Assembly (NCBI GenBank): GCA_034189385.1
Contig: JAXHVD010000019.1
Span: forward strand, 26,181 to 90,180
DNA from: Thermodesulfobacteriota bacterium
GTDB taxonomy: Bacteria > Desulfobacterota > Desulfobacteria > Desulfobacterales > C00003060
Length of the DNA: 64,000 nucleotides
Direction of reading: 5' to 3'
Shown: positions 15,637 through 33,346 of the stretch, one piece after another
Position numbering within the stretch: the first letter of the stretch is position 1
How the letters are laid out: each line of letters starts with the position of its first letter
Position numbers and translations under genes: made by a program
The notes under the pieces: model-generated
What the model saw: the letters and a program-made list of their open reading frames with translations, nothing else
Told to the model about the DNA's origin: nothing
Databases searched by the model: none

Positions 15637-15951
15637 TCAACAGGCACAGGAACAGCTGCCACACGAATCTGGCCGTTGCATTGCTGAGGAAATGGAAAAC
15701 CCAGAACCCATGGGCGATTCAACATAATCCACTTTTACTGGGTTTATCCGTTCAAACAACCCCTTTTCAATCACATAGGTAAGTCCCTCTACGTCAAATA
15801 TGGCGTCTTCATCTCGTGACTCATCCAGAGCCATTCCCAGTGCAGGTCCCGATCATCCGCCTCTGAGCATGATACGGATAGGTGATATCTCTTCTCTGTC
15901 TCTCAATGCCTCTTTGATCATATCACTGGCTTTTTGTGTCACCTCAAACAT
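15637..15951 (-). CDS. HesB/IscA-like selenoprotein (Sec at in-frame UGA 15855-15853)
   Basis: ATG 15951 after GAGGAGG gives MFEVTQKASDMIKEALRDREEISPIRIMLRGG-U-SGPALGMALDESRDED...SCGSCSC. GG-U-xGP is the HesB-like selenoprotein motif, and a SECIS-like hairpin follows. Confidence 0.92.
15817..15833 (-). other. SECIS-like stem-loop of the HesB-like selenoprotein
   Basis: UGGCUC-UGGAU-GAGUCA; loop starts 25 nt after the UGA with G in the second loop position. Confidence 0.65.
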
Positions 15952-31578: not shown

Positions 31579-31951
31579 GCTTGGGTGGTGTGCAACTCCC
31601 TCTTTTTTCTGATCGGTTGTTCCTTCCTATGGACGTCCTATGGGGCGATGCTCTATGTGAAAAGCCGAACCCGAGCCGAGGCCCGTCTGAATCTTCGTGT
31701 GTGGGCACTTGGTTTGCTCTGTCTCTGGGGTCGTAGTGGGCCTCTGGGTTTGTGCTTACTAGCCTCTCGCCGGAGATCCATGTCTTCCCCAACCCTGATG
31801 ATATTGAACCACAGGGGCGATCTGCGACACGGCACCGCCCGTTTCCCACCCAGTGGATTGTTTCCTGGACAGGGTAGCCCCCACATCAAGTGCTCCACCC
31901 TGCGTCAACCCATGAAAGGGCACGCTGTCAGACGGGAAACAAATACATGCC

Positions 31952-32032
31952 TTATATATTATTATTTATATATAGATATATTAAATAGTATATTATATAT
32001 TATATATTTATGTTTAAATTCATGAAATATAT
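31952..32032. other. Extreme A/T tract
   Basis: 31952-32020 has only three G and no C in 69 nt, within otherwise mid-GC sequence. Confidence 0.9.
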
Positions 32033-32471
32033 GCACAGGATATTTCTCATCCTAGAGGATCTCATTTTTTATTTTCCCTTTTGGGGTTGCCTATTAGAAT
32101 TTCAATTCCTATTATATAGATCTGTTTCATTGGAGACAGAAAACTTTGTTGCCCCTAGGCGACAACCCAAAAGACCAGGACCTGTGTTGGAACCTAAACC
32201 CCATTGAAGTTCTAAAGAAAAACGCAATCACAGCTAACGGCCACAGTTGGCCCACGTTTTCTATGCCAAATAAGGAAAAGGCGTGGCGTGGCGCGGGCGA
32301 AAAGTCCCGTGCTCCCCTTAGACTAAGTACAGGAAAGGAGGGTTTTGGACATATTCTTTATCTAGAATGCAGTTCACCTAAAAGGGTAAATAGCCCTTGG
32401 AAAACTTATATCCACAGTACCCTCGGCTTCTGCAACACCAGGGGCAAGACAAGAGAAAGGAGAAAAGAGGA

Positions 32472-33023
32472 ATGCAAAGAATGTGTGTATTGGTGATGAT
32501 GGCAATCATTCTGGCGGGCGCGGTGGGCTCCCCGCAGGTCGTGTTGTCGGCCTGACCCCCTGTGAGCACGTCTCCTCCGGCGGGGGGGACAGTGGCGCCC
32601 AGCGCACCTGCGCCTGTAAGAGAATTAGGCATAAGTGAACCGATGAGAGATTTTCTGGACAACATCGCCCCAGCGAGGGAGCCCGGCATCAGCCCCTTGG
32701 ATCGCTTCAGAAACCGATTATCGGGGGGCGTTTTAGGGAGCACTCCCACGTCGGCAGGGGCACTCTTTGGAAGACCACAGGGTGTTCTCGGCAGGGTATT
32801 AGGGGGCCTGAACGCCCGCAGCGGGCTGGAACGCTTCGGCCTTTTTGCATCAGGCACAAACGGCACGGCATCAGGGCCGCCCGTTTCCAACCAGGGCGGG
32901 TATGACACCAACAAAGAGCCTGGTTCCGCCTGTGGTGATACGGCACCACCTTCTGTCATCGGGGGCTGGGCCTTTGAGACTCCCGTTGCCACTCCGCCTG
33001 AACCTTGGTACCAGTTGCAGTAG
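32472..33023 (+). CDS. Candidate exported (lipo)selenoprotein, 183 aa, Sec at in-frame UGA 32553-32555 (alternatively a nonsense pseudogene)
   Basis: AGGAG/GAGG RBS; signal peptide MQRMCVLVMMAIILAGAVGSPQVVLSA, then TGA, then in-frame PP plus the 153-aa ORF 32562-33023; SECIS-like hairpin; terminator downstream. Confidence 0.6.
32567..32594 (+). other. SECIS-like stem-loop
   Basis: CAC-GUCUCCUCC-GGC-GGGGGGGAC-A-GUG; the G-initial apical loop begins 23 nt after the UGA. Confidence 0.6.
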
Positions 33024-33034
33024 TCCACACATAA

Positions 33035-33075
33035 GCACCGGCTGCCCTCTGCAGGGCCCGGTGCCAGTGCTTTTT
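33035..33075 (+). terminator. Probable intrinsic terminator after the 32472-33023 gene
   Basis: GCACCGG-CT-GCCCT/AGGGC-CCGGTGC stem followed 6 nt later by TTTTT. Confidence 0.55.
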
Positions 33076-33346
33076 ACCACAGATCCACTCCAACCCACAA
33101 AGGCTAATGCCTGACCGAATTGGCCAGGCATTAGCTTCGCGCTCTTCCACAAAGTCCGTAGTATCTCTTATTCAAAAGGTTATTTGGCGGAAAGCTGCTG
33201 GCCAGGGCCATTCGCCCGCCAAAACCTCCCACAAGCTTCCCCTTTGGGCCATTTTTCCGCTTTTTTACCTCTTCTTGTCTCTTGATCAGTTTTCTCGGAA
33301 CATATCAAAGGCTTGTAGGCTACTCTGGGCCTGCCAGACGCTATGG

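Follow-up and report, generated by a model that had tools for sequence, protein, structure and literature searches.

A conserved exported gene with an in-frame UGA at codon 28, probably a selenoprotein without a Cys twin and linked by its C-terminal tail to a bacterial sheath-like system

The window analyzed here, a stretch of 64,000 nucleotides, contains at 32472..33023 a gene that is real, conserved and mis-annotated, and sequence comparison places around it a small family that was overlooked in a preliminary description of the same DNA. This family is probably new and composed of selenoproteins that have no Cys twin and that are linked by a short tail to a bacterial sheath-like system. We consider it likely that the UGA at codon 28 is decoded as selenocysteine (Sec), because the hairpin following it can be taken together with a conserved TGA and a Sec-rich host. 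Given Sec, an association with the sheath-like system appears probable, if a little less firmly so, and given both, a role in cross-linking, which is the weakest step, has about an even chance. As one composite reading, an exported, non-lipidated selenoprotein tied to a sheath-like system is the explanation that we favor, at somewhat less than an even chance. The main gap in the case for Sec arises because a Cys homologue is missing; according to the available part of a recent review, nearly all selenoproteins have a Cys-containing homologue (PMC13188914).

The gene, its alleles and their selection

The features of the locus are as follows.

32456..32462, plus strand: ribosome-binding site AAAGGAG, 9 nt 5' of ATG 32472, the same in 6/6 aligned loci
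32472..33023, plus strand: whole gene, 183 codons given read-through of the TGA; whole-gene dN/dS 0.38-0.56 in 6/6 pairs
32472..32528, plus strand: predicted signal peptide, residues 1-19, with a hydrophobic core at residues 4-18; cut position placed by cleavage-site comparison
to 32552, plus strand: alternative signal ends, by a cut after residue 27 or at a lipobox LSA-U
32553..32555, plus strand: in-frame TGA, codon 28, likely selenocysteine, present in 4/4 distinct alleles
32567..32594, plus strand: SECIS-like stem-loop, core stem 32570-32578 with 32582-32590, GGC loop 23 nt past the TGA
32643..32849, plus strand: residues 58-126, short amphipathic segments within a Pro/Gly/Ser/Ala-rich chain (hydrophobic-moment scan, conserved positions, composition)
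32931..32933, plus strand: Cys154, sole Cys of the mature chain, in S-x-C-x-D, the same in 9/9 aligned family members
32997..33020, plus strand: C-terminal tail PEPWYQLQ, common to sheath-like paralogues
33030..33069, plus strand: probable terminator, a hairpin followed at short distance by a T run (z -3.2)
33101..33137, no strand assigned: second, near-perfect inverted repeat (z -4.1), which L031 has too

Twenty-seven codons lead from ATG 32472 to VVLSA and are followed by TGA 32553-32555, by 155 sense codons and by TAG 33021-33023. The ribosome-binding site, start, VVLSA and TGA are as given in the preliminary description, but its count of 156 codons after the TGA is one too high. The 12-bp stem-loop with a G-first loop 23 nt after the UGA, which it had also reported, was found again with one bulge and a 9-bp core, and the single Cys that it had seen in the mature chain is C154. 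It had also mentioned a terminator-like hairpin; downstream of the gene, folding bears out hairpins at 33030-33069 and 33101-33137, but a simple terminator scan picked up neither of them. By composition, the mature chain is Gly/Pro-rich and of low complexity, and the dicodon coding score of the gene is neutral. The gene is solitary, with an ABC exporter operon on one side and a phosphate-transporter-like gene on the other (as labeled on reading the translations); its neighbors vary between alleles, and no sheath gene adjoins it. Upstream, L029 matches a non-coding-looking stretch of the window at 31617-32175 to 74-84%, and contigs C64, C27 and C1 of the host genome (G000) contain similar copies of that stretch, which we therefore read as probably a small repeat or the remnant of an element.

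Relatives of the candidate are few. A protein search gave 7 matches among 657 candidates, including the window's own product, a profile search over 1.84 billion representatives gave 10 matches (4 family members, 3 of these new), and a metagenome scan proposed 161 candidate stretches, 5 of which held up; three of the six weak profile matches were read and are unrelated repeats. Three further distinct alleles were obtained in this way, one at loci L029 and L030, one at L031 and one at L032 and L033, with 61-84% protein identity to the window. In all four alleles, which are close kin and not independent events, the TGA at codon 28, the gene length, the stop, the GGC loop at 23 nt and a UGA-CCC/CCA context are kept. 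All 10 called homologues, one of them a partial record, start past codon 28, which bears out the earlier expectation that gene callers truncate the gene. Several of the homologues in NCBI are labeled 'Thermodesulfobacteriota bacterium', and the runs listed are marine or marine-sediment metagenomes.

The comparison of homologues at the TGA, proposed in the preliminary description as a check, gave a divided answer: the TGA stands in 4/4 alleles, but no Cys-containing homologue aligned to the UGA was found in protein, profile, metagenome and order-level searches, with the upstream DNA of 7 called homologues outside the comparison. No further DNA homologues were found in 200 relatives, 36 congeners, a GTDB pattern scan and viral contigs, nor in 400 genomes of the order, in which four weak matches (E 0.02-0.06) were taken as chance. 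Pfam, NCBIfam (June 2026), PDB sequences and Rfam gave no real match for the candidate, in agreement with the earlier statement that no known family was recognized. Furthermore, it matches no family by name or motif in Table 1 of a 2026 review (PMC13188914), and no reviewed selenoprotein family in the selenoprotein lists checked and in NCBIfam of June 2026.

Since the TGA and the hairpin are conserved, the TGA is no private nonsense mutation, and such a mutation or an assembly error was rejected because four alleles, as well as contigs assembled from several runs, have the TGA. The sequence support for the TGA, on which the preliminary description had made its proposal depend, includes a contig, from a sequencing run that may be the source of this DNA, that is identical to the window over 32470-32590. 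Among the matches listed, contigs 84-95% alike have no change at 32553-32555; signal-peptide codons vary freely in the region-matching contigs. The variant contigs of records 5, 10, 11 and 14 keep the TGA by per-run tallies and depth ranking, which did not resolve records 12 and 13 singly.

Purifying selection of moderate strength appears to act on both sides of the TGA. Over codons 8-183, dN/dS is 0.38-0.56 in all six pairs, and past codon 57 it is 0.38-0.54 (6/6 pairs); in the signal peptide it is 0.30-0.34 in four of six pairs, while a fifth pair gives 1.14 and the sixth no defined value, and over codons 29-57 it is noisy (0.30-1.89). The allele at L032 has no ATG, GTG or TTG from the TGA to Met58, so that its codons 29-57 are readable only through the TGA; the frame is nevertheless kept in them, and comparison with each of the three remaining alleles gives dN/dS 0.30-0.54. 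The allele at L029:866-1417 and L030:641-1192 has lost 2 nt in codons 6-7, so that its ATG is no longer in frame, with TGA and hairpin intact; this copy is probably dead, and the frameshift means that the gene is dispensable in some strains.

The hairpin after the UGA and selenocysteine decoding in the host

The host genome (4.13 Mb analyzed, 90% complete) carries selA, selB, selC (tRNA-Sec) and a Sec-type selD with its own TGA, which supports the view that the host decodes Sec, as had been supposed from a HesB-like selenoprotein in the window. The latter was located at 15855 (minus strand) with the motif GGUSGP, and a G-loop hairpin lies 25 nt past its TGA. Of 159 candidates for read-through, the 110 ranked highest were inspected by eye, and 22 genes that we take to be selenoprotein genes were chosen and named by motifs that we presume to be characteristic.

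Scored by our own scripts, the best G-loop hairpins of these 22 presumptive Sec genes lie 16-26 nt past the UGA, mostly 21-24, and the SECIS hairpin of host fdhA has the same geometry as the candidate, its GGC loop likewise lying 23 nt past the UGA; in loop sequence and distance the candidate is also matched by three Sec genes of the Fe-S oxidoreductase type in the host. On our own constrained score the candidate hairpin reaches -14.5 kcal/mol, compared with -2.1 to -14.4 for the 22 presumptive SECIS elements, a value that is also reached by 20/5000 random TGAs and by 6/91 GC-matched TGAs. It is the single hairpin of that strength over 160 codon positions of the gene, and the most stable G-loop hairpin among 85 genomic combinations of a ribosome-binding site with a signal-like peptide ending in TGA. 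Moreover, the first 24-nt bin of the hairpin is the most conserved bin of the gene (20/24 columns). The published SECIS consensus, in the part of the source available, comprises a loop of 3-9 nt with G first or second, a stem of 4-16 bp, a distance of 16-37 nt and a stability of <= -7.5 kcal/mol (PMC13188914). The candidate agrees with it in all four points, as do 17/22 presumptive Sec genes; the consensus is loose, since 1030/4000 random TGAs agree with it as well.

Compared with shuffles, the 51-nt hairpin region folds no better (z 0.17), and equal stability arises in 14-42 of 1000 synonymous recodings (1.4-4.2%) and in 30-106 of 1000 base shuffles (3-11%); the synonymous recoding test indicates that Pro-Pro/Gly-Gly codons can pair by themselves. 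Among the 9 stem pairs in the 4 sequences, none has a compensatory two-sided change, one has a consistent one-sided change, two are each broken in one allele, and six are invariant. The hairpin, for which the preliminary description had proposed such a comparison, is kept together with its GGC loop. Taken alone, the hairpin is only suggestive as a Sec signal.

With fdhF/FdhA-type selenoprotein genes the candidate has in common the in-frame UGA, a 3-nt G-first loop, a 9-bp stem, 23-nt spacing, a stability below -7.5 kcal/mol and a selABCD host. It differs from them in having no Cys homologue, no redox motif (neither CxxU nor UxxC), no redox fold, and a low-complexity chain.

The PEPWYQLQ tail, its paralogues and the end of the signal peptide

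The last eight residues of the candidate, PEPWYQLQ, recur elsewhere in the genome. The preliminary description, which recognized no family for the protein, had not noticed this C-terminal octapeptide, which is common to sheath-like exported proteins of the host. It ends six long exported paralogues of 287-307 aa in genome G000, all beta-rich and each with a signal peptide, an S-P-P-V-P-P-P start and the PEPWY tail:

C6:9478-8606, minus strand: exported paralogue
C18:23954-24835, plus strand: exported paralogue
C20:4924-5787, plus strand: exported paralogue
C34:88011-87148, minus strand: exported paralogue
C49:1402-2295, plus strand: exported paralogue
C64:110789-111712, plus strand: exported paralogue

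The tail also ends two shorter exported proteins and one fragment, and altogether the motif ends 12 of 81,194 stop-bounded frames of the genome, with 10 of the 12 belonging to the exported set. The eight other full-length proteins bearing it all start with a signal-like peptide (8/8); the candidate combines a signal peptide with PEPW[YF] at its end, and belongs to the set on condition that its TGA is decoded and not a stop. Within the tail, Glu-Pro-Trp is the same in 9/9 members, down to 39% identity, and the tail is borne by three unlike protein bodies in the genome, a distribution of sequences that suggests a working signal. Short proteins or fragments with unlike bodies, bearing the tail or the last sheath-like strands, were seen at L022:4122-4631 (minus), L028:5605-6084 (minus), and, in G000, at C20:48044-48220 (plus) and C2:7713-7240 (minus), and point to modularity of this C-terminal signal.

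When profiles of the candidate and the long family are compared, the last 15 residues only are aligned (probability 75.8, E 2.3e-5). Because no more than these align, the candidate is no sheath subunit, and we infer from its sequence that it would be at most an accessory of the sheath-like system. The two-sheet, amyloid-like beta core of SH/MspA sheath proteins is absent in its Gly/Pro-rich chain. That the gene is a frameshifted remnant of a long paralogue was rejected, since no other frame of the locus aligns among the matches listed.

The protein collection yields 157 relatives of the long family, whose mature start is nearly always S-P-P-V and in which one Cys is invariant in an alignment of 119 rows. 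The family was found in 1/36 congeners, with one weak match in 400 genomes of the phylum; in one congener the long family is present and no copy of the candidate gene was detected. Longer relatives of the family were not found, which is weak evidence. In a distant genome of the phylum, L053 (G401:C186:2850-3197) weakly matches the C-terminal half of the long family at E 1e-10; its tail is another one, and a short part of it is masked or unread. An AF2 model of a long paralogue has long beta strands (pLDDT 82, pTM 0.76); Foldseek gave no match for it in PDB or BFVD, and the ESM Atlas gave no real match (best score 0.75). By eye, the motifs of the long family follow one another in the same order as in an SH-like protein of a Methanospirillum virus and as in the first strands of SH proteins from ANME-1, both taken from the supplement of PMC11576556. 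In the available text of that source, from 2024, no homologue of archaeal sheath SH proteins in Bacteria is reported (PMC11576556).

One long paralogue has a csgG gene about 2 kb upstream. At this locus (L023:3193-8992, contig C18 of G000), csgG is followed by three genes for exported proteins, a long paralogue among them and the other two Cys-tailed, and by what may be a CsgF-like gene; the Pfam CsgF model has no match there. Literature linking sheath and CsgG gave nothing relevant among the matches listed. About 0.5 kb upstream of another long paralogue, a second hidden exported gene (L024:3724-4416, contig C20 of G000) carries A-A-P-U-G-C after its signal peptide and has a G-loop hairpin 17 nt past its TGA; this U-G-C gene is compatible with Sec being used locally on the surface of the cell and is no proof of it.

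For the candidate, the end of the signal peptide can be placed in different ways. Before the TGA, the hydrophobic core (residues 4-18) does not run straight into LSA-U; it is followed by the polar, helix-breaking GSPQ. When a matrix is built on 104 cleavage sites in the long paralogue family, cutting after residue 19 receives a higher score than cutting after residue 27 in 3/4 alleles; every score being negative, this counts as weak evidence. The sequence S-P-Q-V at residue 20 matches the mature start of the long paralogues about as well as a start at U28 does. In one allele, taken from a single contig, Gly19 is Ala, giving A-V-A before S-P-Q-V, which resembles AxA before S-P-P-V in the paralogues, and Leu25 at -3 is Phe. 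By the -3 rule, signal peptidase I (SPase I) would not tolerate this Phe for a cut at residue 27. We favor a cut after residue 19, which would probably put Sec at mature position 9. The proposal of the preliminary description that Sec is the first mature residue is therefore not the favored one, the matrix preferring residue 19 in 3/4 alleles; a Sec at +1 after an SPase I cut has a small chance, about that of lipidation. After their cleavage site the long paralogues carry Ser; descent of U28 from this Ser was rejected, their codons being AGT/AGC, two changes from TGA.

The lipobox reading, in which Lgt would attach diacylglycerol to the selenol, LspA would cut before U28 and the Pro-rich chain would be membrane-anchored, is improbable in our judgment. 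In its favor, L-S-A precedes U28 in 4/4 alleles, within 15-35 residues and after a basic n-region, and fits the PROSITE-type lipobox pattern [LVI][ASTVI][GAS] with U in place of C; a Pro/Ser/Thr-rich linker follows, as in Lgt/LspA prolipoproteins, and Leu, or Phe in the contig allele, is poor for SPase I at -3. From these prolipoproteins the candidate differs in Pro-Gln before the box, Pro at +2, and U for C: among 34 predicted lipoproteins of the host, 0/34 have both Pro and Gln/Asn/His at -10 to -4, and 1/34 has Pro at +2. GSPQ splits the core from the box, the lipoprotein-signal models of Pfam and NCBIfam do not match a Cys version of the candidate, no Cys-lipobox homologue was found, and the contig allele offers A-V-A before S-P-Q-V as described. 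Hence the lipobox option of the preliminary description fits by its LSA-U residues but not by what precedes them. Were it true, which has only a slim chance, it would be the first seleno-lipoprotein, with the lipobox Cys replaced by Sec, a diacylglycerol selenoether, and an archaeal-type bacterial sheath tethered to the membrane via the PEPWY tail; it would be far more surprising than the reading that we favor, and it is the less likely one. No literature on selenocysteine at a lipobox was found in full text, judged by the titles and abstract starts of the papers listed, nor any on selenocysteine with a lipoprotein signal peptide and diacylglyceryl, subscription papers being outside the scope of both searches.

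Readings of the locus and comparison with known systems

In the reading that we favor, SelB would bind the GGC loop and Sec28 would be inserted; the protein would be exported by the Sec pathway and then be cut by SPase I after residue 19, with a cut after 27 less likely; and the PEPWYQLQ tail would route or dock it with the CsgG-linked sheath-like system. Sec28 and Cys154 might then be linked, by Se-S or S-S bonds, to the Cys that is invariant in the sheath-like subunits, or catalyze exchange. The product would be a largely unstructured, low-complexity accessory that accompanies sheath-like subunits and may help to cross-link a surface coat. Se-containing links withstand reduction better than disulfides and would suit a reducing, anoxic habitat. 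For Methanospirillum, disulfides between sheath monomers were proposed to join the sheath rings (PMC10593813, part of the source). With the long PEPWY paralogues and archaeal SH/MspA proteins, as far as described in the accessible parts of the sources (PMC6242892, PMC10593813, PMC11576556), the candidate has in common a signal peptide, an S-P-x-V start if the cut falls after residue 19, and a conserved Cys; the PEPWY tail is shared with the bacterial paralogues only and not with archaeal SH/MspA, and the candidate differs from both in being without the beta-sheet core.

The remaining explanations part from this one either at the UGA or at the tail. An exported selenoprotein outside the sheath-like system, whose tail is an evolutionary leftover and whose Sec28 and Cys154 form a periplasmic or surface pair for redox or metal binding, would draw equally on all the evidence for Sec, and the solitary gene, its variable neighbors and the mere 15 residues aligned with the long paralogues suit it; the constancy of Glu-Pro-Trp over all 9 members and its use on three protein bodies suggest, however, a working signal, and we regard this alternative as unlikely. 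Slightly less unlikely is that the UGA is a true stop, the locus being an old shared pseudogene, or a 27-aa peptide with a separate cytoplasmic protein started at GTG31 or ATG58, or the shadow of an antisense ORF at 32378-33028. With it agree the frameshifted allele, dN/dS values only moderately under 1, the start codon that three of the four alleles have at position 31, and an antisense frame that is open in the window and in L029 and shares third positions, so that dN/dS does not discriminate against the antisense ORF. However, alleles 71-72% alike in DNA keep ribosome-binding site, frame, length and stop without a further nonsense codon, L032 has no start before codon 58, neither a signal peptide without passenger nor an export-type tail on a protein lacking its leader sits well with this reading, and the antisense frame is broken in 2/4 alleles (L031 and L032), on which ground it was rejected as a real gene.

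A UGA followed by C is a weak stop. A programmed leaky stop without Sec, at which the hairpin stalls the ribosome and Trp or Cys enters now and then to yield a minor low-dose component, would make use of the UGA-CCC/CCA context of all alleles, and the want of a Cys homologue and a redox motif as well as a hairpin unexceptional for its GC content are in line with it. Yet loop sequence and distance match those of host fdhA and the three Fe-S oxidoreductase-type Sec genes, C after UGA occurs in 7/22 presumptive Sec genes as well, and the host is Sec-rich; we give this explanation little chance, and keep to an exported, non-lipidated selenoprotein.

Among described selenoproteins, the exported or lipoprotein selenoproteins SaoB, SaoC and SaoX resemble the candidate in that Sec occurs in a protein with a signal peptide and gene callers truncate the gene; in the available part of the source their Sec belongs to CU/TU motifs, located within the mature protein or at its end, and aligns with Cys, and it lies neither at a lipobox nor beside the cleavage site (10.1101/2022.07.06.499078). 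Most bacterial selenoproteins in the catalogues are redox enzymes that have a Cys twin, and searches based on Cys/Sec pairs would miss a family without twin and fold. If Sec is confirmed, the candidate would be a selenoprotein that serves structure or assembly on the cell surface, tied to a sheath-like polymer. The short C-terminal tail common to unrelated exported proteins is a candidate sorting signal for a CsgG-type pore. The gene raises the questions whether Sec can withstand export when it lies beside a signal peptide, whether a selenol is accepted by Lgt, and which function the PEPWY tail has.

Elsewhere in G000, in-frame TGAs with coding signal on both flanks and no family assigned were seen at C39:4756 (plus), C45:13991 (plus), C63:30866 (minus), C63:20557 (plus), C64:136405 (plus), C1:286103 (plus) and C4:26373 (minus). 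Their motifs are GIUPE, GVUPE, FNGUAGG, GKGUMQS, GYVUPV, MPYUTV and VEDUSV, and some of them may be uncatalogued selenoproteins.
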